A DNA stretch of 64,000 nucleotides, from assembly GCA_000708835.1 (NCBI GenBank), contig DF237277.1, forward strand, positions 37,949 through 101,948, in the 5' to 3' direction. The position numbers and the translations under genes are program-made. Numbering within the stretch: the stretch's first letter is position 1; the number at the start of each line of letters is the position of its first letter. A model generated the notes under the pieces. It saw only the letters and a list, made by a program, of their open reading frames with translations, was not told the DNA's origin and did not search any database. Shown one piece after another: positions 19,011-56,900 of this stretch. Origin of the DNA: Klebsormidium nitens. Its lineage: Eukaryota > Plantae > Klebsormidiophyceae.

Positions 19011-20055
19011 TGGCTCGTACTGCCGCTTCGATGCGCCTAGTACAAGTCACTTCGCGAACGCCAGACCAAGAGCACTGCTCTGCGTCACACGGTCCACTTT
19101 AGCTGAGCTTTCTTCTCATCGCCTAGCCGGACAGGAATCTGACTGCCTTCCTGAAACTGTTTTTAACAGGTCTAGTCTGGCAGGAGCTCCTAGGTCGCCT
19201 TGAGCTGTGTGACACACTGCAGTCGCCCCGAGCTTTTTATGCGCATAGTAGTCGGTTTGGACAAGTCATTATTGAGTCTCACTACTTTCGAATCCAACTG
19301 AAGCTCCAGGGCAGGATTCCACGGTGCGCCAGTGGAAGGACAATTGAAATACGTAGCTGCTCGTCAACCATTTCGTCAGCTTCTACTTTGGGGTTTCAAA
19401 CAGCTTATCCACTCTACGTAGTAAAGTCGTTCCGATACGGCAGACGCCCTGACGGTATAGTCGTGCTGAAGCTCTAGGAGGGCTGCGAGGGATTTGCGAC
19501 GACTGGCGATGTAAGCTTGACCTCAGGCTCATTTGCGCTCATTTGAAATCATGACAAGCATGTGATCGAGCCAGATGCGATGTCATCGTGCATACTCATC
19601 CAAATCTGTTCATATCATGCAGATACCTGCATGTTTTGCTAGAAGTCCATAACAGTATGCTAACACATCGTGACGGTGTCCAAGCGGATCCATGTAGGTA
19701 AGTAGAAGGTTGCTTTTGTCTTAATTGGGAACCGTGACCCGTGAACGGACTAAGAATACGGCCTTGAATTGCTTAACAGGGCCACGCTGTGCATGAATGA
19801 ACTCACATGCAGCCTTGAAACATGGGAATGAGATTGCATACCTATAAGGACCTAATTGCACTGGTGAAGCCATAGTACATGCCAAAAAGGGGTTCATGGT
19901 GTTTCAGCTTGCATGGTTCATAAATATTCGAATCTTATATCAAGATTGCACACAGCAATGATGCATAGCCGGCTTTGACGGTGCGAATCTTGCACAATCG
20001 TCGCGCCTTGATTCTTAGTGAATGTCGGCCGGAGGGAGACATGTTTGTGAGTTGG

Positions 20056-20499
20056 TGTGACGAAATAATAAGGCTTAGCCGCAAAGGTTGCGGGTCCGGC
20101 GCGCGGAGTCGCGCGGCCGCCTAGAATACGTCGACGTGTCGTCGGTAGAGATGTCTAAACCCCGAACCCTTGATGTCACGAGGAGTTGAGTAGGACACTC
20201 ACCGAGCGGCGGTTATAGACTTGAGATAGACATGCATGAACTGGAACTGGATCGTCCTCTTTTTCTACTTATCGGATTTGGGAAGCAAGGCGCTTCGTTC
20301 TCTTCTTCTCCGCATGGCTTCCGCCATGCCTCTGGCCATCTCATGAGGTATCGTCATGGTGCTGAATGCATGAAGTAAGTCTGTGAGCATGATGTATAGA
20401 ATGGGAGTCATCTAGCTGCGCCGGTGAATACGGCTGATTGTCACTGCCGCCGCCGCCGGCGGAGAGTACCCCTTTCTTTAGCGGAGACCCCAGTTAATT
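20056..20499 (+). repeat. 5' LTR (lacks the terminal TTCGTCACA present in the 3' copy)
   Basis: Starts TGTGACGAAA and runs ...CCCCAGTTAATT directly into the PBS TGGTGG. Confidence 0.92.
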
Positions 20500-20522
20500 T
20501 GGTGGCGAGAGTGGGATTTGAA
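20500..20522 (+). promoter_or_regulatory. Primer binding site complementary to a tRNA 3' end (probably tRNA-Leu)
   Basis: The reverse complement TTCAAAT-CCCAC-TCTCGCC-A-CCA has exact T-loop(7)/T-stem(5)/acceptor(7)/discriminator/CCA spacing. The Leu identity is inferred from discriminator A and the TTCAAATCCCAC T-arm. Confidence 0.85.
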
Positions 20523-21331
20523 TCACGTCCCGATCGCGGCTAACAGTCCGCAGGCTAATGGTCAAGTTGAACGTTACATGCAGGTGATCAAAGCTTGTCT
20601 GCGGAAGTGTGCTCACGAGCACCCTGACAGCTGGCACCAGCATCTCTCCGGAGTCGCGTTCGATATTAGGACCACCTTTTCAGGACACCATTCAAATGTC
20701 TCCTTTTCAATGCCTTTACGGTCGTTCCCCCCTTTTACCGATCGAAATCAACAGTCTTCCTACTCGCCACGGGTTGGTGCGGCCGAACCTCAATCGCCCA
20801 GAGACCGAAGCGGAGCGCCAGCAGAGGATTAGTAACATTCACCAAGCTCAATCATCGGCCAAGGCAATGATTTTGGGCGCGTCTATTGTGCAGAGAAAGA
20901 ACTTCGCCCGATGGAACGCCACGGCGAAAAACAAGGTCGCGCTTTTGAAAAAAGGGGATTGGGTGTTAATGAAGCGGCCCGGGACGATTAGGGGTCATCG
21001 ACTCCGATGCGAAGGCCCTTACGCGTTCCTTGGGTGGCTCCCCGGTCTCAAAAACAAGAAGGCGGTTTTGCAAGACCATCTCGGGCAAAAATGGTTCCGC
21101 AACGCTCACGAGCTTTGCCGGTATTTTCCCCGTATCCAGTTCGTCCGCGAGTACCTGGAGGAGGTCCGCGCCGTGGATGGCGTCCGCCCTATGCCCAACC
21201 TTCTTATTGCCCGTTTCCTCGAGAGGAATTTCGTGGCCCCCCCTTTTGCCAGCCTCCGTTTGGAGCAGGCTATTACCAAGGTCCGCAAGCTCCATGGTTT
21301 CGTCCCCCTCCGCCGCAGTTCCACTCAATGA
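20518..21331 (+). pseudogene. Truncated, frameshifted gypsy integrase (C-terminal half of core plus GPY/F region)
   Basis: NHVPIAANSPQANGQVERYMQVIK...W...L..VAF.IRTT, a +1 shift in the T-run at ~20677-80, then QDTIQMSPFQCLYGRSPLLP and KKGDWVLMK...EGPY. The HHCC domain and first two catalytic Asp are absent. Confidence 0.9.
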
Positions 21332-21828
21332 GTCCTGCCCTCAATTTCGCAGGTTCGAAGCGTCCATACCGGCGGGGTATGAGCGAGGAAGGGCACGAGA
21401 GGAAGAAGCGGCAGCGGCGAGCGGAGGAGCGGCCCCATCGGAAGCGGGGGCCCCCTGAAACTTCGGAATCCACGGAATCCGAAGAAGTTCCATTAGTCCG
21501 GAAAAGGATGTCGCGGAAAGAGCACTCGGAAGCCACGGCTGAAGAGCAGGACGCGGCTATGGGGAGGCTGGACGAGGCCGATTTACACCGGCCCCTTGAC
21601 GTCCTGCCCGCCCCGCATCAGCCGGATCTTCGTTTTGAGGAATTGCAAGCGCCTCTTCTCGAAGTCATTCCGGCGAACCCGCGAACGGAACCCAAACGGA
21701 TGACGGAAATTGACCAAGCCCAAGCGCTGGTGGCAAGCCACAGTGCAATTGCGGGAAAGGTCTGCACCCAGTTGTTGGCCAACTGGATTTTCGTCATTGG
21801 GCATTGCTTGAAGCACGTCCGTGGTTAA
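21328..21828 (+). CDS. LTR-element extra ORF (basic/acidic N-terminus), unknown function
   Basis: The ATG overlaps the integrase stop (ATGA, 21328-31). 166 aa, with RKKRQRR and RKRG basic clusters. Confidence 0.45.
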   Translation: MSPALNFAGSKRPYRRGMSEEGHERKKRQRRAEERPHRKRGPPETSESTESEEVPLVRKRMSRKEHSEATAEEQDAAMGRLDEADLHRPLDVLPAPHQPDLRFEELQAPLLEVIPANPRTEPKRMTEIDQAQALVASHSAIAGKVCTQLLANWIFVIGHCLKHVRG

Positions 21829-21946
21829 GAGTTACATGCGCGGCTAGCCGCTAATTCAGTTCCTCATCGGGATTCTCCGGCGGATACTCCTAAGCGAAGC
21901 GTTCAATCTCCTTAGCGGACCGCATGCGGTCGAGGAGAGAGCGTAT

Positions 21947-24900
21947 TTGATGGGGGTAGCGGAGTGGGCCCGGCACGAGCGGTCCGACCCCGCGGGGAAG
22001 GACATTGATTTTTTCGTGGGGCAGTGGTCCAGCAAGATTGCTAAACGGCCAAGGCCGGCGCAATCCTTTGGACAATGGCAGTATGGGGTTTCGGCAGTTC
22101 TTACCGGGGGTCGAGTGGAGCAAGAGCTGGCAGCCATCGCACGCGATACTGCGCAGTGGTTGGACAAACCCTTAACCTTCCCCCCGTTCCTGCGGAGCGA
22201 ACTTCGAAAAGTTAAGCCCCGCGAGATCCAAGTCCCTGCCAAGCCTCACAAGACTCGGGAGTCAGTATTGGTCTTGGCGGATTGGGAGTTAGCGAGCGCT
22301 GCGTGTCCTTTTCCACGGAAGGGACTCAAGAGCGAGGGTGAGCAGACGGTCGAAGGCGCCCAGTCGGCGGGCAGGACCGATTCGCAGACGCCGTCGTTCG
22401 TGGATGTGGTGCGGCGGCGCGAGTCGAGCGGTGGCGGCCGCGGTAGAGGAGCGCGCGCGCCGACGCCCAAGAAGCAGAAGACCGGAGCCACCGAGGGCGC
22501 CCAAGGCGGGGAGGCGGAGAGCGCGCGCGCGCGACGCCGTCAGAGCCGAGGGGAGAAGTCGCGGGAGGAGTCCGGCGGAGAAATGGAAGGAGCGGGGCAG
22601 GGGCCGGCTGCTACGGTCATGACCGAGGAGCCGGCAGAAGAAAATGAAAACAACATGTTGCGCGCCTGGGAGGTGGCGAAAAGTTCGGCGGAAGACGAGT
22701 GGCTTCGCCGCGCGCGCGCGGACAAAGTCAAACGTTTTGGGACCAGGAGCGACCGGGGCGGGAAGTTTGTAGAAGAGATTCAGAAGGATGGCGTGTGGTG
22801 CAAGATCCAACGTATTGAGGGCACGCAAGAAAAGTGGGAGTCCGCCGGAATTGAGATTCCCCAGCTGCAACTAAGAGTCCACGGATTCTTACGGAACATT
22901 CTGTGGGGGGAACCGGTAGCCGAGCGGTTTGCACTTTTTATGCCGGATGAGTTCTTCTCGCAGTACGTGGACGGCACCACGGTGTCGGACCTGGGTCTCG
23001 TGGAGTTGGAACAGCTAGCTCTTGATGGAACGCTGCAGGAATGGGAAAGGAGCGCTAATCGGGGGGTCCTGTTCCAGTGGGGAATGTTAAACGACCCCAA
23101 CCAGTTGTACAGTCCACGGACTGTGTCGCTGTCAGCCTTCCAGTGCAGCTCACGCGACGAAGAGCTGGATTCTGCCTTCCACGACGTCGACCTTACGATC
23201 CCCGCGGCGGTCATCGAGCAGATCGTTTTTGATCGCAGAAAGGAGCCGCGGTGGACGAAGGATCGCGTTCGTGAGTTGCTCACGAATGAGGACTGGGGGG
23301 TTCCGGCGTGGTCGAATCTTTCGGAAGCGGACCGGAAGGATAACGACAGAGCTGCTCAACAACTCCTGGCTGCTTTAGGGGAGTCGGATAGGCGGCAAGG
23401 CCGGAAGCAACAGGGAAGAGAGTGAAAGAAGAGAGAGCGGGAATCTCCTCCGAGGAGGAAATCGAACTCATCGGGGAAACTTGCAGATTTGCGGGTGAGG
23501 ATTACGAGAGGATGGGGAGCGTTCGCGAAAAGGTTGCAGCCAAGGTTGTGACCGCCGGAGCGGATACTCCAAAGGAGGGGAGGAAAAAGCCGGAGCCGGA
23601 ACCTAAGGGAACCGGAACGAAGAAGGGGAAGCTGAGGAAGTCAGACCCGGAAGCGGAACGGGGGCGGTCGAATTGAAATCGCCTCCCCCGGGATCGGCTA
23701 CCTTGGAAGAGGCTCAGCTGAAAAGTCCGAGGACTCCATCTAAGTCCCCGGCAAAAGCCTCTGGCGGAACGGAACGGAAGAAGGCGGAACCGGAAATCAA
23801 GGTTTCCGGCGGAAAGAAGGGACTCGACGAGTCGGGCCCCGAGCGAAAGCAGGTTGAAACAGGTAAAAAGGTCGAGAAGGGTGCGGAGCCCAAGGGCCCT
23901 GCACCAGAAACTGTTGTAATTCTGGAGGTAGGGAAGACGGAAGCCAGAACCGAGCCCAAGGGCGGTCCGCCGGAACAGCGGAAAGCATTGGGGGAAGTTC
24001 AGAAGAGCGAAATGTCTGCGGACATTCCGGGGGGCGATCTCGAAACAGCTTTAGCGGATCTTAATGCGAAGGAGGAAGCTGAGTACGAGAAAGCCCAGGA
24101 ACAGGAAAAGACGGATCGGGAAGAAGAGCGGAAGCGGAAAGATGCAGAAGAAGAGGAGCGGAAGCGGGAAGCAGAAGAAGTGGCCACGGCCTGGGCGAAG
24201 GGGTTAGATCATGCGGGGATCGCGCTTGGCGAAAGCGCGTTTGAACCGGATCTACCACCCAGCACCGAGGCAGAAAAGCAGGCCTATATAAAAGAAGCGG
24301 CCGGCGGGTCAGGGGGCGGAAAGTTGGAAAGGCCCAAGGGCGCACTTGTTTTTGGGGGCCTAGCAGCAGACCAGGGGCGAGAAGACGCTGTCAAGGCGCC
24401 AATTGCCCCGGTAAGTCGACTCCGTTTTCCGTCACCTGGGCCAAGACTGCCTCTGCAGGAGAAGAATTTGAAAAACGATAGAAGTCGTTTTGAAGCAATG
24501 AGGAAAGGTTCCCCTGCCCAGATCTCCAAGGAGACGCTGCAGGACGATATTCGGATAACTATAGCATCGGTGAAGGAATCCCGTTCGCCATGTCGGCGCT
24601 GTCAGAAGTTCGGTCATTTCCCGAGGGAGTGCCCGAATCAAGTCGCCTCCGTTCATTGTGTTTGCTGCAACTCCTATGGAAGGCATCGAAAGCGCTGCAA
24701 GCAGCGTCGGGCGATGTATTCGGACGTGGTGTCCGTAGACTTAGACTCGCCTTTGGCGCGAGAGGTGAGGAAGGAAATAGCTCGGGAAGCTGGTGGGTCT
24801 GACACAGAGAGTGAATCCCCTCTGCAGACGGCCGAAGCGGCCGCTGGTGACACGTCACCAGGGGCGACAGCACTGTCGGGGCGTCCGTTCCTGGTCTCGG

Positions 24901-25427
24901 ACGGGGGAATTCCGTTGGACGGCGGAGTTCCGGTGGGCGGAGCGGCCTCCACGGAGGCGCCGGATCTCGATCCGGACAAGTTCACGGGCATGGCTTTTGA
25001 GGAAGGACTCGGGGGTGAAGCAGAAGAAGCGGCCGCGGCACTCGAGAACGTGCGAGGGATCGTTGTTCCGTCCCTAGGAGTTCCGGAAACCCGAACTGGT
25101 CAAGACCAGTTCGAGAGCGGAGGGGCTTTGACGGAACGGCGGAACGATACCGCACCTTCTCCTAGCTCATCGCGGCGCGGGGGTCGCGGTCCGGTTACCG
25201 CTTACCCTCTCCTAGGGTCCGTCACGCATTACGTCAGCCGCCGGAGCGGAATGATGGCGATTCAACGTTTTGTGGACGGACAGATTACGGTCAGCATGGT
25301 TCCGCTGGGTCGGTACATGCGAGGGGCCGAGTTTTCGCAGCCGACGACCGTGCACTTCGTGAAAGGAGTCCCACGGGGTTTCTTCCAGAGGAGCGCGGAG
25401 GCGTGCGAATCCGACGAATCAGAATAG
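21947..25427 (+). CDS. LTR-element extra ORF(s), ~1150 aa in three pieces joined by -1 shifts, with a CCHC zinc knuckle
   Basis: ORFs 21947-23425, 23422-23676 and 23673-25427 each overlap the next by NTGA. CRRCQKFGHFPREC (C-x2-C-x4-H-x4-C) lies at 24591-24632, followed by a degenerate second knuckle. There are globular-looking W-rich segments at ~21.95-22.3 kb and ~22.75-23.38 kb. Confidence 0.65.
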
Positions 25428-25808
25428 ATGTACAGAGCGGCAGTAGTCCGCAAAATGTACTATAGTGTAAATGGAACCGAGGCTGTCGACGCTAGGGACA
25501 TGAAAGCAGGGGACCACCACGGTGCGCCCCTGGGTAGTTTGTGTGGATTTGGTAAAGGCTAGCGAAACTCTTGGCACGGCAGAGTCACGACTCTGTTTTG
25601 AGAATTCAGTGTACTTCTTTCGAACCGTGTCGGGATTCGCCACGGCGTCTTCCGGAAAGGTTCTCAACGTCCAGGTGTACCTTTTCTCTCTTCATGACTA
25701 AGGCTTGAACGTTCCAATTTGGATGGATAGCTTAGAAGAGAGTTTTTAATGGCACCAAGACCTCTGGTAATCATGGCTGGATTTGGACGCGAGGACGCTT
25801 TTTCGAAC

Positions 25809-25816
25809 GGGGGGAG
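25809..25816 (+). promoter_or_regulatory. Polypurine tract (GGGGGGAG)
   Basis: Purine run 10 nt upstream of the 3' LTR start, separated from it by CCGTCACAGC. Confidence 0.7.
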
Positions 25817-25826
25817 CCGTCACAGC

Positions 25827-26279
25827 TGTGACGAAATAATAAGGCTTAGCCGCAAAGGTTGCGGGTCCGGCGCGCGGAGTCGCGCGGCCGCCTAGAATAC
25901 GTCGACGTGTCGTCGGTAGAGATGTCTAAACCCCGAACCCTTGATGTCACGAGGAGTTGAGTAGGACACTCACCGAGCGGCGGTTATAGACTTGAGATAG
26001 ACATGCATGAACTGGAACTGGATCGTCCTCTTTTTCTACTTGTCGGATTTGGGAAGCAAGGCGCTTCGTTCTCTTCTTCTCCGCATGGCTTCCGCCATGC
26101 CTCTGGCCATCTCATGAGGTATCGTCATGGTGCTGAATGCATGAAGTAAGTCTGTGAGCATGATGTATAGAATGGGAGTCATCTAGCTGCGCCGGTGAAT
26201 ACGGCTGATTGTCACTGCCGCCGCCGCCGGCGGAGAGTACCCCTTTCTTTAGCGGAGACCCCAGTTAATTTTCGTCACA
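25827..26279 (+). repeat. 3' LTR (453 bp, TG...CA)
   Basis: Identical to the 5' LTR except 1 substitution and a 9-nt terminal extension TTCGTCACA. Followed by TSD TTGG. Confidence 0.95.
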
Positions 26280-28894
26280 TTGGCGTATAGGGAGCTGATG
26301 CACGCCAGGCTAGCTTTGGCAGGTCGAATGAGCTTTAACAATGGTGCGCGTGTTTCCGAGCAACACATGCACTTGCGTTTCAAAATACGTACCAATCATC
26401 GACATACATCGCAAATGGACACCGCAAAAGTAATGTGCAACATCGAAGCACTTGTACATACAAGCCGCCGAAACCCCTACGGGTTGAGCTAGTTTGCTGG
26501 CATGCTTGATTACTCAAAACTGCCGCTTGATGATCTAATGACTAAGTTCATATTGAGCGATTCATGTCGTATGATGCATATCAAGACCCGCTGTATATCC
26601 TAAGAGCACGCAACCTCCTTTATCCAGCACCGATTGGAGGTCAAGCCAGTGAACCATAAGCACTCCGGTGATCGTTAAAGCTGCAAATCCGGTCTTAAAA
26701 GATAGGTTCCATTGCATCATGTGATGATACAATCCTTGACGAAGAGGTTGTTGAGGAGGTACACGATACAAAAGGCACCTTGTTTGCCGATGTAGCCCTT
26801 GTAACACCTTGGAACAATTATGACGGCAAAAGAAGGCGACCAAGTGCTTATATCTCCCTATCAATGTGGCGGCATGACAACGCCATGGCGCAACTTCTAC
26901 GTAAGTTTGGATACAACGCCTCGAACTTGCTACCTACGTGCTGCAAGTGCAGATCACGGAATCTCCCGCTATACCATTCAAGACCCCTTCTACCATGACC
27001 AGCCTCAACCTTTGACCTAGTGTTTGCAACGAGTTACACTTACTTGTGCAGGAAACTTACCAGACCTTCTCAAAATCCACCGCTGCAATGACATGCCAAC
27101 AAAGTCCACACATGTCAGTTGGAATTGCTTCGTGCTTGCACAGGACCTCATTGGCCGTTAGGCTCTTACTTGGCAGGGATTCGCCTCACTACCTGCAAAT
27201 CAGAAGGTGTTGTGCTTGGATATCACAAAGACGTTTTGAAGCATACAGCGGCTAACAATAGTAGCGACCATTTTGGAATACCTGCTCGGATCCCTAAACA
27301 CAATTCTCAACTCTCAGCTCTCACATCGAGGACTTCCTCTTCTCTTTGCATGCATACACTCTGACGAGCTTTCCAACAGCTGAAAACCAATAACGACACC
27401 TCCCTTATGCGCAAGGCTGGACGGGATGGCCCCACAAAGAGAACCCCGCCATTCGAAGCCTCCAAGAGATCTGCAGTGTAAAACAGACAGGATGGATAGA
27501 AGGCAAGTCAAGTTGCCGGACAGTGCGTCAATGCATCGAGTGGCTCCAAATGCATCGGGTGGCTCCAAATTGGTGTCCAGATAGATACACCCGTCAACAT
27601 ACACTCAGATGATGTCCGCATGACATCTTAAAAGAAGAAGGAGAAAAGGCAGAGCAGGAAAGGCTGAAGAATGACGGGGGAGGTCTACTCAAGCGATGAT
27701 TCCGTTTCGACTGTCTTGTGTCTTGCATCTCTCAACAGGCCTGCTTTCAAAAGTCGTTACGGCGAACAGTGCCATGACCAAGCAAAGAACCCGATCATTG
27801 AGATGGCCACACTTGAAGTCTTGTCTGGTTCACGCAGCGCGCAAATGCTCAACCTTTTGCAGCCAGCACGATCTCAAAGAAATGGCAGCAGCCGTTAGGC
27901 AAAGGATGGAGTTGGGATACAAGTGCCCTCGGGGCATCTGCTGAAGCAGATGTCGGTTGCACCTTCTATATTTTCAATCGCTGTTATCAGCTGAAAGTGC
28001 AGATTCAGTTGGCACATGCAAAACACGCTGCTCACTGCGCTCGACTGGAATGTTACCAGCAAATGACAGCCGGCCCGTGGTGTCCACCAGGTTTCACGTG
28101 CCAGTGAGCACACAGCGTTCGTAGGATGAGGCTAACCACAAGCGCCGCCTCCTGTGACGGACATCAAGCTGCGATGTCAGGTGCCGGGCGTTACATGCGA
28201 GTAGCATCCGTTTCAAATAGTATACCAGATGAGGTTCTAGGTCGAGCAACTGCAGGGTAGAAATAATAAACAGCAGCTACACGTATCGTAGGCAACGGGT
28301 GCAAGCTGCACTTCCTTCATGATCCCTAACCGTATCGCTCGTGGCAAACTTCCCGCTTGACACTCACGCCAGACTTTGCATTCCCTTCGCCGGAGGTGCA
28401 AAATTGGCTTGCAGAAACTCCGTCCATACAGCACTCTCAGGTAAGACGGAGTACTTCCTGAACACAAATTTTAGAGACTCGCTGTTCCCAACAACAGAAG
28501 AGGGCCCTCTCCAAAGAAGAGGGCCCTGATCATCAGGTGGAAAGGACACACAAAACATATGCACAATAGAAAGCAGTTTGTCTTTGGGGGGGCTCAAGCA
28601 TGGAGGGGAAGGGGAGAGCTTATCTTCCGACCAGTGCGACCATAGGAAGAGCCAGACCCAGTCGACCTGATATTCGCCGTATGCAGCCGTGGTTGCGGAG
28701 GGAAGAAAAGGAGGATGTATCAGTCTTTGGACAAAAAATGGTCGGCTTATGTCTCGAGATGCAAGACAGCTAGGCCCCAATACGGTCCCAACTAGTCATT
28801 CCTATTTCGACCGAAACGCAACCTCAAGGGTCCTGAGCCATACATGAGGCAGGAAGCTAGACAAACACTCTAGGTTTCACGTAAAATCCTCCCG

Positions 28895-50882: not shown

Positions 50883-52621
50883 ATGCCGTCAAACACACTG
50901 CTCGCAAGGACCGGGCCAGTTCTGATCCGAATTTGTCATGTGGCCCTGTCTATCCCGCGACGGTCACTCCGGTAAATCCCTGTTTTAGCCGTAAGTGGCT
51001 GCTTCTTCCGGTTGCCAAACGAAGATAGCGTTCTTGGCATACTTACTCATCATAGCTCTTGACTTGTGCAGTAGAGGTGACGCAGTTTCCGAAGGCCCCA
51101 TTCTGCCGTCCGAGTACTGCCAGCAACGCCTCGACGCCTTATACGAGCGCGTCTCTGCCTGCCGCGAGGAGTTCATCGGCTATCCGCTCAACCTCGACTT
51201 CGACTACAGCGAAGTCCTCGCCCCTTTCCTGCGCTTCTCTCTAAATAACGTCGGCGATCCGTATCAGCGCGTGCCCACCAACCTAAGTGCGCTGCAAACT
51301 CACGACTTCGAGCGCGAGGTTCTGGAGATCTTCTGCGGGCTGACGGGGGGATCCCCCGCTGACGTGTCGGGGTACGTCACTAACGGGGGCACCGAGGGCA
51401 ACATGTATGGGCTGTACTTGGCGCGCGAGGTGCTGCCACGTGGCATCGTCTACTTCTCCGACGCGTGTCATTACAGTGTCTTCAAAATCTTGCGGGTACT
51501 CCAGATGAGGAGTGTGCGGATCCGGACCGACGGGCGGGGCGAGATGGACTACAACCACCTGCGAGAAACCTTACAGGTACGTTGAAATAAGCGGTCTCGA
51601 AAATCTGATTGAAAGTGAAAATTGATACTTGATTTATATGCCTCCGTCCTTCTGGGCTGCTTAAAGACCGGCCAATTCTGTTGTACCAGCTTCGAAGCGG
51701 ACCACGGAAGCCCGCGTCCGTCCGCTTGTTGCGTTAGCCAGCGCTGGCGGATCGATGCAAAGCGCCGACGGAACGAAGCGTTTTCATTTGGTGCCGATGT
51801 CAACTTTAAATGGAGATAGGGTAAAAGATTACTATCTGCATTCGAAGTAAGGCATGCGGGAGCTTCTTTCTTTCGCCGATGTGTTTTGCTCATACCATCG
51901 CATCGGCGTTCGAACCCGCTGCCGCAAGTGTGGTGTTACATTGACAAACCAGAGTTAACGGTAAGACTTTGGGAAAACCGTTTTGACATCCCCGTCCCTG
52001 TCGCAGGCCAATCGCGACTTGCCGGCCATTGTCTTCGCCAACATCGGCTCCACCATGACGGGCGCCATCGACAGCCTGCCGCGCATCAAAGCCGCCGTCT
52101 CCGAGGCGGCCACATGCCGCTCGTACATTCACTGCGACGCGGCGCTGAGCGGCTTCGTGCTGCCCTTCGCCCCCAATCCGCAGCCCTTTGGCTTTTCAGA
52201 CGGCGCCGATAGCATATCCGTTAGCGGCCACAAGCTTATCGGTTCGCCGATCCCCTGCGGCGTGGTCCTCGCACGGCGCTGCCACGTGGAGGGCATTGGC
52301 AGCAACATTGAGTATGTGGGCGCGCTAGACACGACGCTCTCGGGCTCGCGCAACGGTCTCACCCCGCTAGTGCTGTGGTACGCTTTTCGCAGTCGGGGCA
52401 TTCGAACGGTCCGGGACATGGTGCGCAGGGCCCTCGACGTGGCGGCATATGCCACGGAGCAACTGCGCGCGGCGGGCGTCGACGCGTGGCGGCACGAGAA
52501 CTCACTCATTGTCGTCTTTCCCCGCCCCTCGGAGTGCCTTGTCAAGCGCTGGCACCTCGCTGCCCAAGCAGACATCGCGCATCTAGTTACGATGCCGCAC
52601 GTCAGCCGGAATCAGGGTTGA
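50883..52621 (+). CDS. Group II PLP-dependent decarboxylase, bacterial histidine-decarboxylase-like
   Basis: Exons 51072-51576 and 52007-52621 are firm; exon 50883-50971 (intron 50972-51071, phase 2) is inferred. Motifs: IGYPLNLDFDY, FSLNNVGDP, GYVTNGGTEGN, HYSVFK, HCDAALSG, SISVSGHK (PLP Lys), GSRNG. The C-terminus appears frameshifted at 52615-17, and the alternative frame stops at 52692-94. Confidence 0.9.
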
Positions 52622-53986: not shown

Positions 53987-56900
53987 TCAGAAAGGGCTGG
54001 CTGCGGTAGCGAGTTCTATGAGGAGCTCGGGAAGCATTCTTTCCTTGGGGAGGCTTGGCACAGGTTCTTTTCGGAAGTCGAGGTTGTCCGCTTTCATGAC
54101 GGCCAGAATGTCCTCCACCATTGGATCCGAGCCGCCACGCATGGGGTCCTGAACGGAGAACAGAGAACGGTGGTGCTTCGTTGTACTTCTCGAAGGCGAA
54201 GCAGACTCACCCCTCCTTCTATCAACGACTTGCAATCTTGACCCCACGAACGAGCACAGCACTCAAGTTAATGCTCCAGAGGTGCTACAGTTGTGCGATC
54301 AGCGAAACGCGCAATAAGCAGACAAAAGTCAGAGTACGGTAGGATTGCAACATCTACTTGCAGCGGCTTGAGAAACACCCTAAGCTTGGCTTGCGGCAAA
54401 CGGGGCGCCTGACCTCAATGATGGGGTCCGTGTGCGTCTTCCCTTGGTACAGCTTGACAGTCGCGGCGGCCCCGGCCTCTCTCAACGCGGCCGCAAACAT
54501 GAGGCTGCAGCACACAGCAAAGACTCGGTTCATGAAGCCAAACCGGTCGCTGAAGTCCTCAAGCAGGATTTGGCGACACGCAGAAAGCACGAGAGAGCAG
54601 GCTCTGATCCTCGCAGGGGCTTTTATGCAAGCTTTGGGCCGCAGTCCGCTCATGCCCAAGTGGCTGTCCAGAATGCCGGAAAGCGCTACGGTTTGGCCTC
54701 TGCTTCATTAAAGGCCCCGTTCAAGGTGCAACGGGAAAAACCGCTGATATTTCAGAAACGCCGAAATGCAGGGAGGGATGCCGAGAAGAGACCCACCTGG
54801 CATGGTGCGGGATGGACCGGTCGGCAGTCCCGTGCAGTAGAGTGATGGGCGGTAGCAGCGGGCCGGCGTCTCGTCGCTTGTCGGTGAAGGCTTTGCGGGC
54901 GAGGACGGTCGGGGAGTAGCCCGGTAAACAGTGGCGGCCCTCCATCAGCCTGAGGAAACAACGCAGACGGGGTCGATGCACGGCGGAGAGCACTAGAGCA
55001 CAGTCCTCAAAGTTCGAACCGGTTCGCTGAACGAGAAAAGCTGGGATACCTGGACCGGATCCGGACCCAAAGCAGCAAGGCGTTCTTTCCAAAGTGTCGC
55101 GATTGACGCAAGCGTCGTTGCCCGCATGTTTTCCTTCGCGAGGGGAGTGCTTTACGCTGTAGAGGATCAGTTGCAGAGTCCCTCATAGAGGCGCAACAAG
55201 GGGGAACTCCCGCCCCTCCCTCAATGAAAGCTGTATCGCAGCGTCAGACCAAAAGCGTTCTTGGGCGCTTCCAGTGAGTGTTCTTACGTCAGCATGATGG
55301 TCTTGTAGAGCCCCCGGTGGTGCCAGTGCTCCAACATGTCCTCGATGTCATAAGCGCCCGACACGCCAATATACGCCCGCAGCTGGGACGCATACCAGTC
55401 TAGTTCACGCCCCCCCCGCTCCTGCGGCCCGTTTGGAGCCGTTTTCATAACCCCGTTCCGAGGCGACGCTTTCGCTTGCTCCCCGTTTGAGGCGTTGCCG
55501 TTCGAGTTGGCTGGGGGCTCCGAGGAGGTATGGGAACTGGTGGAAAGTGTCGGGTTTTCAGGCGCCGTGGCCTGCGAGGGATCTGGCGGCCCAAAGCGAT
55601 CCTCAAGCCTGCAGCGCCAGCGGGACAAGCTTGTACCACTTTAGTCATAAAGCTCGTACCACTTTAGCAGGAAAACAAGGTCCAAAGTTCCGCGCACAGT
55701 TAGGAATTCAGTACCAATTCCGACTGGGTTGCAAGGTCGATGAAGTCCGACATCGCCCGCATTTCGTTTTAGAGGGCGTTGTGGTTGAAGGAATCCACGT
55801 GGCTCTCGCGGCTTCCTCGATGCGGTAACTCCACCTTCAATGTCGCTGCCAAAGTATAGCACGTGCGCATTGCGGCGACAGCAATAGCCGTAACCCTGGT
55901 TATCGGTCGCTGATCGCGGACGTGCCCATGCCCTCTTTGAGCAAAAGACGATGAGACTGGCTACTTCCTGTCCAAGACCAGTGTCGTTCCGACAAGGTAC
56001 TTCTAAATGGAGCTGTGCACAAACCATTATGAGCATACCGTCATTTGTGCTTTTGGCCACAGTCGGGAAGAAGACACTATGCTTACTTGGCGGGCGCGGC
56101 ATCTCGGAAGCGCACGTGCTTGGGCCCGTTGGCGCTCCGCTCCTCGAGCTCCGCCTCCTTAATGGCTTGCCGCAGCAGCGCCAGCGCCGTCAGGTGCGCC
56201 CCCGCCGACTGCCCTACGACGTACACGCGGCCTGGGTCGCCGCCAAACTCGCCGATGTTGAGCAGCACCCACTCGATGCCCGTGCTGATGTCGGCGACCA
56301 TGTCGCTTACGCTACCCTGGGGAAAGTTCCTGGCAGTAGCAGAGGAGACGACTTCTTCCCATGTGCATCAAGGGTAATGGAGGCGAAAAGGGTACAGTGG
56401 AAACCAGGGCAGGTGAGTGGAGGTAAGTAAACGATGCAGAACGACGTATCCAGGATGCCTGAGCTCTGGAACTTCTCAGCTTCAGTGCATGGCAAAAGTC
56501 ATGGTCGATTGTACTTACAGCATTTTCAGGGCAGGCTTCCCGGTTGCGATCGATAGATAGGGTCTATTTAGATACTAAATTTTAGAACTTTAGCTATTAC
56601 TTTGACGTCATCGAACATCTTTCCGCGGTTGCAGCCGGCGAGGTTGAACAGGAGTGATCATCGGACCATAGAACCTCAGAGCAGGTTCCATCCGACGCGC
56701 TGGATTCTTCCACGTGTTAAAGCTACTCACTAGGATGACGTCAGTTAATGTGGTCACGTAACTAAACTTACCCTCAACCTAGCCTAAGTTTAGACTAAGT
56801 ACACCCTATCTATCGAACGCAACCGGGAAGCATGCCCCGAAAATGCTGTATCTGCTGGTCGGAGCCGCCACTCACAAGGTGAATTTGAAAGGGACATATA

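Follow-up and report, generated by a model that had tools for sequence, protein, structure and literature searches.

The window analysed here, 64,000 nucleotides of the Klebsormidium nitens contig DF237277.1 (assembly GCA_000708835.1, positions 37,949 to 101,948 of the forward strand), contains at 20056-26279 an internally deleted long terminal repeat (LTR) element with an integrase of the Ty3/gypsy type. Its two LTRs do not end alike. The upstream one stops short of a terminal CA and runs straight into the primer-binding site (PBS), and this asymmetry is recurrent in the family, real, and outside the standard LTR cycle. The family is thus unable to make its right CA end by the standard scheme, though its copies possess one. 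We consider it very probable that this end, here called B2, is rebuilt in every cycle; that the rebuilding proceeds via joined cDNA ends, with integrase cutting the joint after each CA, is the route that we favour with modest confidence. The evidence from sister copies comes from contigs of five of the 24 listed sequencing runs (X1, X5, X6, X7 and X11). The parts of the element that matter are the following.

20052-20055, plus strand: left copy of the 4-bp target-site duplication (TSD), TTGG (from the sequence and an element-free site in runs X5 and X6).
20056-20499, plus strand: 5' LTR (A1), 444 bp, starting with TGTGACG and ending in AATT without terminal CA (from the sequence).
20500-20517, plus strand: PBS, 18 nt, complementary to a tRNA-like 3' end in CCA (from the sequence and sister contigs).
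25809-25816, plus strand: polypurine tract (PPT; from the sequence).
25818-25833, no strand: perfect 16-bp palindrome, composed of B1 (CGTCACA, 25818-25824), a GC spacer (25825-25826) and the first 7 nt of the 3' LTR.
25827-26270, plus strand: core of the 3' LTR (A2), identical to A1 at 443 of 444 positions.
26271-26272, plus strand: junction scar; its T is common with the first PBS base, its second base varies by copy (none, T or G).
26273-26279, plus strand: B2 (CGTCACA), the right attachment end.
26280-26283, plus strand: right copy of the TSD, TTGG.

The 5' LTR ends in CAGTTAATT, directly adjoins the TGG of the PBS at 20500 and, taken alone, has no terminal inverted repeat. The full 3' LTR (25827-26279, 453 bp) has the 444 shared positions, of which one is mismatched, plus the extra TTCGTCACA, and is followed by the TSD. 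Together with the scar, B2 forms a perfect 10-bp terminal inverted repeat with the element start: read on the opposite strand, the final 10 nt of the element repeat its initial 10 nt exactly. The PPT is followed by a single C and then by the palindrome, and the repeats stand in the order A1-internal-B1-A2-B2, with a B of 7 bp. An earlier note, made from the letters of this DNA, had already described the CA-less 5' LTR, the extended 3' LTR and the palindrome behind the PPT, and all three hold. The start that it gave for the element stands as well, while its end at 26283 takes in the TSD. Runs X5 and X6 each include one contig in which the site is empty (20055 joined to 26321); the TSD and the element ends are therefore real and the insertion is recent. 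By consensus, the candidate primer is tRNA-Leu; the 64-kb window contains no tRNA gene. Close to the LTR end lies a GC-rich hairpin (20443-20470 and 26214-26241), which varies in sister LTRs of X1, X5, X6 and X11; one X1 contig has an inverted match to part of it.

On the left side, contigs of four runs (X1, X6, X7 and X11) pass from the 5' LTR to the PBS directly, without CGTCACA, as the earlier note had predicted. The PBS follows immediately upon AATT in one X6 contig and two X11 contigs, and X7 record 23 covers 20261-20517 with 2 differences and zero gaps across the LTR-PBS junction. A two-contig consensus of X1, decoded by hand against the window junction, reveals a sister whose PBS is interrupted by 4 inserted nt, again without CGTCACA. 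Three X1 contigs depart at 20517 into different internal sequence.

On the right side, 34 contigs match 26200-26330 (6 from X1, 23 from X5, 3 from X6 and 2 from X11; the contig details are those among the matches listed), and their cover falls behind 26271, the T that follows AATT. About nine sister 3' ends, from runs X1 and X5, terminate in CGTCACA. X1 record 3 reads AATT-T-G-CGTCACA and then enters unrelated flank (scar TG). Six X5 contigs depart at 26271, and their consensus begins with CGTCACA at an agreement of 0.56, which in simulation is best explained by five of the six (range 4-6). Three X5 contigs reach 26279; their agreement of 0.61 is closer to that of unrelated flanks (0.56) than to that of two identical ones (0.75), and one of the three may instead be a PBS. 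Including the window copy with its scar TT, the right ends total about ten and fall into three scar classes. The scars vary even inside single runs, TT and TG occurring in X1, 1-nt and 2-nt forms in X5. The prediction of sister ends with CGTCACA and a variable scar is thus borne out. The earlier note had also read the window junction as AATT-T-CCGTCACA altered by a C>T mutation. The readable scars are none, T or G and never C (in three X5 contigs the base is unreadable), for which reason this step is set aside; the model does without it. Its reading of a circle opened at the junction loses the C>T detail and keeps its predictions for sister ends and scars, which are largely met.

The PPT junction is spanned by four contigs (X5 record 14, X6 record 22 and X7 records 23 and 24). 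Its spacing is kept: the 7 gaps of X5 record 14 are all explained by indels that lie before the PPT, and X7 record 24 is gapless.

The presence of a 16-bp palindrome alone means little, because about one palindrome of at least 16 bp is expected per 64 kb; two were found. The chance of one at this precise position is p ~1.6e-5. The inverted match to the LTR start measures 11 nt in the form with a 1-nt scar, 10 nt in the window copy and 7 nt on the PPT side. With the ends joined, the resulting palindrome would have 24 bp in the commonest form and 22 bp in the window copy, versus 16 bp at the PPT. A model of hairpin priming was dropped, as DNA folding of the palindrome region is no better than that of shuffles (z -0.73 and -1.56). 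Within 25809-25833, AGC is found directly after the G run and again directly before the LTR start; judging from this pair, an ancestral left end of the form PPT-GC-TG may have given rise to B1 through an inverted duplication.

In the standard cycle of LTR elements, the RNA segment immediately preceding the PBS serves as template for the U5 of each daughter LTR, and the tRNA sets the 5' end of the minus strand. A U5 that ends in AATT yields no CA end; therefore, B2 would have to be supplied anew from the left-end palindrome, the sole other copy of the motif. The sequence of events might be as follows. tRNA priming at the PBS would produce a right end of AATT plus a retained T, without CA. Priming at the PPT would generate a left end with CGTCACA-GC-TGTGACG at its tip, either from the start or after trimming. 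Host end-joining or an end-to-end jump of the reverse transcriptase (RT) could then join the two ends, leaving a scar of 0-1 nt, and the simplest product would be a 2-LTR circle. Integrase would cut after CA on both strands, the GC would be dropped, and insertion with a 4-bp stagger would generate A1-internal-B1-A2-B2. The joint would be favoured over the palindrome at the PPT, as it is only there that the full inverted repeat is restored (22-24 versus 16 bp); the longer palindrome would account for integrase using the joint and not the internal site. The shared first T of the scar would correspond to the retained A of the tRNA, and such retention is known for some RTs. The variable second base could stem from the tRNA as well (G), have been added without template or result from trimming.

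The observed part of this model comprises the anatomy, the recurrence in sisters, the variable scar, the TSD and the type of integrase. Reverse transcription is supported by the LTR identity of 443/444 within the window copy as opposed to 3 differences in 72 nt in a sister LTR (from X1, same run) and to 88-90% identity of the protein P0005 in the second open reading frame (ORF2). Further support comes from the 18-nt PBS and from a deletion that links the PBS to a PBS-like stretch of the integrase (see below).

Several points weigh against the joining of ends. The data are contigs, and neither a circle junction nor a linear cDNA end nor cleavage was observed in them. B2 fits the inverted LTR start (10-11 nt) better than it fits B1 in direct orientation (7 nt), which suits copying back by RT as well. 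Direct joining needs a left end exactly at CGTCACA after the C, an unusual PPT cut. Only one of the four contigs spanning the PPT has at least 31 letters on both sides, and B1 of the sisters is known by spacing only; further, eight of the about nine sister 3' ends stem from one run, and the scars could follow subfamilies rather than cycles. A gene for RT or RNase H of the family was not seen, the region being deleted in the window copy. Linear DNA is described as the established retroviral substrate (PMC11054761), and 2-LTR circles of a fly element are given as 6.4% of circle reads (bioRxiv 2022.09.25.509424).

Genomic sequence by itself cannot tell the joining of ends from two neighbouring routes. 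One of them is copy-back, which we consider unlikely. Here the plus-strand 3' end ATTT would pair with LTR positions 8-11 and RT would copy the left end inverted; the product would be a linear cDNA with a palindrome at both ends, each cut by integrase, and no circle. The commonest scar form agrees well with this idea, with an 11-nt match to the inverted LTR start of which the 4-nt overlap is part. The TT of the window copy is explicable as a one-base slip, and C is never read before B2. The TG scar of X1 record 3, however, does not fit, since there the match drops to 7 nt, and 4 nt are little for the invasion of a duplex end. The 4 additional matching bases might as well descend from an 11-bp terminal repeat of an ancestor or have been selected for integrase binding.

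The other neighbouring route is to integrate first and to close later, and it appears quite improbable. Integrase would cut the left-tip palindrome of the linear cDNA and use the 7-8 bp tip as a second end; both halves would be inserted, and host repair would join the free right end to the tip. The final sequence and the variable scars would be the same, and the substrate would stay linear, as established for retroviruses (PMC11054761). Yet the attachment sequence in the tip is just 7 bp long and lacks the subterminal T run, and a chromosome break would be left that needs repair.

More distant, and very unlikely in our view, is movement as DNA in the manner of Ginger, with the asymmetry inherited as a frozen ancestral deletion. 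Ginger transposons have a stand-alone gypsy-like integrase, inverted ends of the type TGT...ACA and a 4-bp TSD. The 4-bp TSD and the 10-bp inverted termini of our element are in line with such a movement, as are the separate integrase ORF of near relatives and the lack of a visible RT in the family. The LTRs, however, are homogenised within the copy (1/444) and differ between copies (3/72), which disfavours a DNA transposon. Moreover, PBS and PPT are retained, the deletion from PBS to integrase resembles a misdirected plus-strand transfer, and the scar variation is located exactly at the joint of U5 and B2.

A further reading is replication in the manner of split-direct-repeat elements, which we rate as highly improbable: B2 would be inherited via an RNA that contains it, with priming away from the PBS. 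The A1-B1-A2-B2 order is that of VIPER, TATE, PAT and Ngaro (PMC6681497), and DIRS-like repeats are stated for a Gypsy element of K. nitens (PMC5890265). A B of just 7 bp is hard to reconcile with this kind of replication, and so are the 18-nt PBS, conserved and situated at a deletion breakpoint, the varying scars, the TSD and the DDE integrase. Finally, a one-off 9-bp deletion in the 5' LTR of the window copy (the alternative raised in the earlier note) or an assembly error, combined with a chance palindrome, has practically no chance of being right: about one 16-bp palindrome is indeed expected somewhere in 64 kb, but the LTR-PBS junction recurs identically in X6, X7 and X11 sister contigs (unless these are collapsed artefacts), the position of the palindrome speaks against chance, and any progeny would carry the deletion in both LTRs.

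How does the element compare with known systems? With Ty3/gypsy elements (Metaviridae) it shares direct LTRs, PBS, PPT, outer ends of the type TG...CA, a TSD and an integrase with H2C2 and rve domains. It differs from them in the 5' LTR without CA end, and thus in LTR termini that are not identical (window copy and sister contigs), in the spare attachment half-site behind the PPT, in the variable scar inside the right end, and in an integrase that is apparently a separate ORF followed by two long ORFs. In its working it resembles an LTR retrotransposon furnished with an internal spare end of the DIRS kind. Unlike Ginger, it has LTRs, PBS and PPT; a stand-alone integrase, inverted ends and a 4-bp TSD are roughly shared. 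The closest prior notice is the legend to Fig. 4c of de Mendoza et al. 2018 (PMC5890265), which assigns DIRS-structured repeats and Gypsy domains to KnitGypsy-Dnmt3 of Klebsormidium nitens; in that paper the DIRS arrangement is described as A-coding-B-A-B, and both a mechanism and a repeat length are absent from the available portions of its text. The name KnitGypsy-Dnmt3 occurs in a single paper of the open literature searched. The host is probably the same, the window copy contains no DNMT (its Pol is deleted), and the two are likened by description only.

The order A1-internal-B1-A2-B2 is that of the split-direct-repeat elements PAT, Ngaro, VIPER and TATE, which according to PMC6681497 use a tyrosine recombinase and have a B of 57-294 bp; our element differs by its 7-bp B, DDE integrase, PBS, PPT and 4-bp TSD. 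The five frames scanned gave no recombinase match. In DIRS-1, end rebuilding is reported to require an internal complementary region (PMC7192593; PMC5633606), and B1 with the adjoining LTR start, a copy of the end junction inside the element, is here proposed to serve likewise. The proposed staggered cleavage behind CA, in a palindromic junction, resembles integration from a 2-LTR circle junction. Such integration was claimed in 1984 by Panganiban and Temin and later displaced by linear DNA, as PMC11054761 recounts. The foamy virus integrase is described to cleave the palindrome at the viral LTR-LTR junction, on each strand after the CA (PMC1180852), and 2-LTR circles of HIV-1 figure as a back-up substrate (PMC4372172). 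RT is reported to clamp 2-nt overlaps (PMC3035444), and tRNA bases are reported at the circle junctions of HIV-1 RT mutants (PMC2262134). The retroviral circle route is optional or disputed and its provirus symmetric, whereas here joining would be obligatory and leave its trace in every copy. Among the titles and abstract openings listed in searches of the open literature, a scope outside which most subscription journals and Repbase Reports lie, none describes this end structure or mechanism.

As a rule, LTR elements integrate linear DNA with two ready CA ends, and circles are regarded as dead ends or back-up. Be it a circle, a copy-back or a joining after integration, each would be a non-standard step in the LTR life cycle. 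If true, integrase would have in this family a natural junction to cleave, and the evolution of split-direct-repeat architecture out of ordinary LTRs could be modelled on it. More tentatively, and with slightly more doubt than belief, one may suppose that a green-algal LTR lineage, perhaps including KnitGypsy-Dnmt3, uses the joined-end (2-LTR circle) junction as its obligatory integration substrate. The Panganiban-Temin model would then be realised in nature, integrase LTR elements would be bridged to split-direct-repeat elements, and the joining scar of each cycle would be legible in every genomic copy. LTR finders that require TG...CA on both LTRs may overlook or mis-trim such families.

The interior of the element contains three coding stretches.

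20509-21331, plus strand: C-terminal half of a DDE integrase of the Ty3/gypsy type, whose PBS-like stretch forms the fusion point with the PBS.
21328-23425, plus strand: ORF2, without Pfam family, with a frame break near 21822.
23607-25427, plus strand: ORF3, 606 aa, with a weak CCHC zinc knuckle (~24588-24638, under the Pfam cut-off).

Beyond what the earlier note contained, the window copy thus proves to be a deletion derivative, and the 4-bp TSD, the 10-nt inverted ends and a joined junction more symmetric than the PPT site are likewise additions. Sister contigs match from the LTR through the 18th nt of the PBS and diverge behind 20517, and integrase contigs match from 20508-09; therefore, the copy lost the part from the PBS to mid-integrase at the PBS-like stretch. 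By its sequence the deletion looks like a misdirected plus-strand transfer, and because of this resemblance the PBS appears to be in use.

The integrase remnant is 92-96% identical to the protein P0003, and relatives at 96% identity have the domains PF00665 (rve) and PF17921 (H2C2). A two-sequence integrase profile, run against solved structures, found foamy virus IN (E 3e-18) and Ty3 Gag-Pol (E 3e-11) as its best matches. The reading frame breaks near 20675-79, where an X1 contig is one base shorter at 20675; the break is possibly an assembly error. P0005, which bears the label Klebsormidium nitens, matches the tail of the integrase at 100% identity over 116 aa, and by this similarity it is read as a sister copy of the element. 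Gene calls in near relatives give the integrase a separate ORF of ~520-540 aa. P0003, P0004, P0007, P0008, P0009, P0012 and P0020 show a stand-alone integrase ORF with its own N-terminal extension, maybe as gene-caller artefacts; across the lineage such an ORF would be unusual for Ty3/gypsy. A search for longer fused proteins yielded P0005 and one relative of 33% identity only.

ORF2 is a single unbroken protein in the relatives P0001, P0002 and P0005, and a search of the ESM Atlas with it found nothing at 0.9 or above. Past the integrase, ~4 kb of sense ORFs (21328-25427) belong to no Pfam family bar the weak CCHC, their relatives being 34-89% identical; they may represent cargo or a gag-like gene that has changed place. 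An in-frame GT-AG stretch of 417 nt (24411-24827), which contains the CCHC knuckle, is skipped in X7 record 23, either by alternative splicing or by deletion in a relative; run X7 is taken as RNA by guess only. The same record, a contig of 4918 nt, has 243 loose letters after the PBS and 151 before 21352, and may be a form without RT and integrase or a subgenomic RNA.

Relatives were also sought elsewhere. The one locus of the metagenome scan (L001) is a bacterial chance match, and the one hit among 56 stretches of the genome scan (L002) comes from a bacterial region with an enzyme gene and lacks an LTR. Five scans of viral contigs gave 0/39, no match, 4/32, no match and 0/4; the four loci (L003-L006) are 25-31% identical and have no such end structure. 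A plasmid search gave no match.

Elsewhere in the window, 86-275 is a tandem pair of 95-nt copies that are 98% alike, and an LpxC exon (PF03331) lies at 1913-2476 on the plus strand. A pyridoxal-dependent decarboxylase gene occupies 50995-52621, also on the plus strand (PF00282 in 51965-52618). The 335 bp at 56516-56850 resemble a miniature inverted-repeat transposable element, with inverted arms of 56 nt that are 91% complementary.

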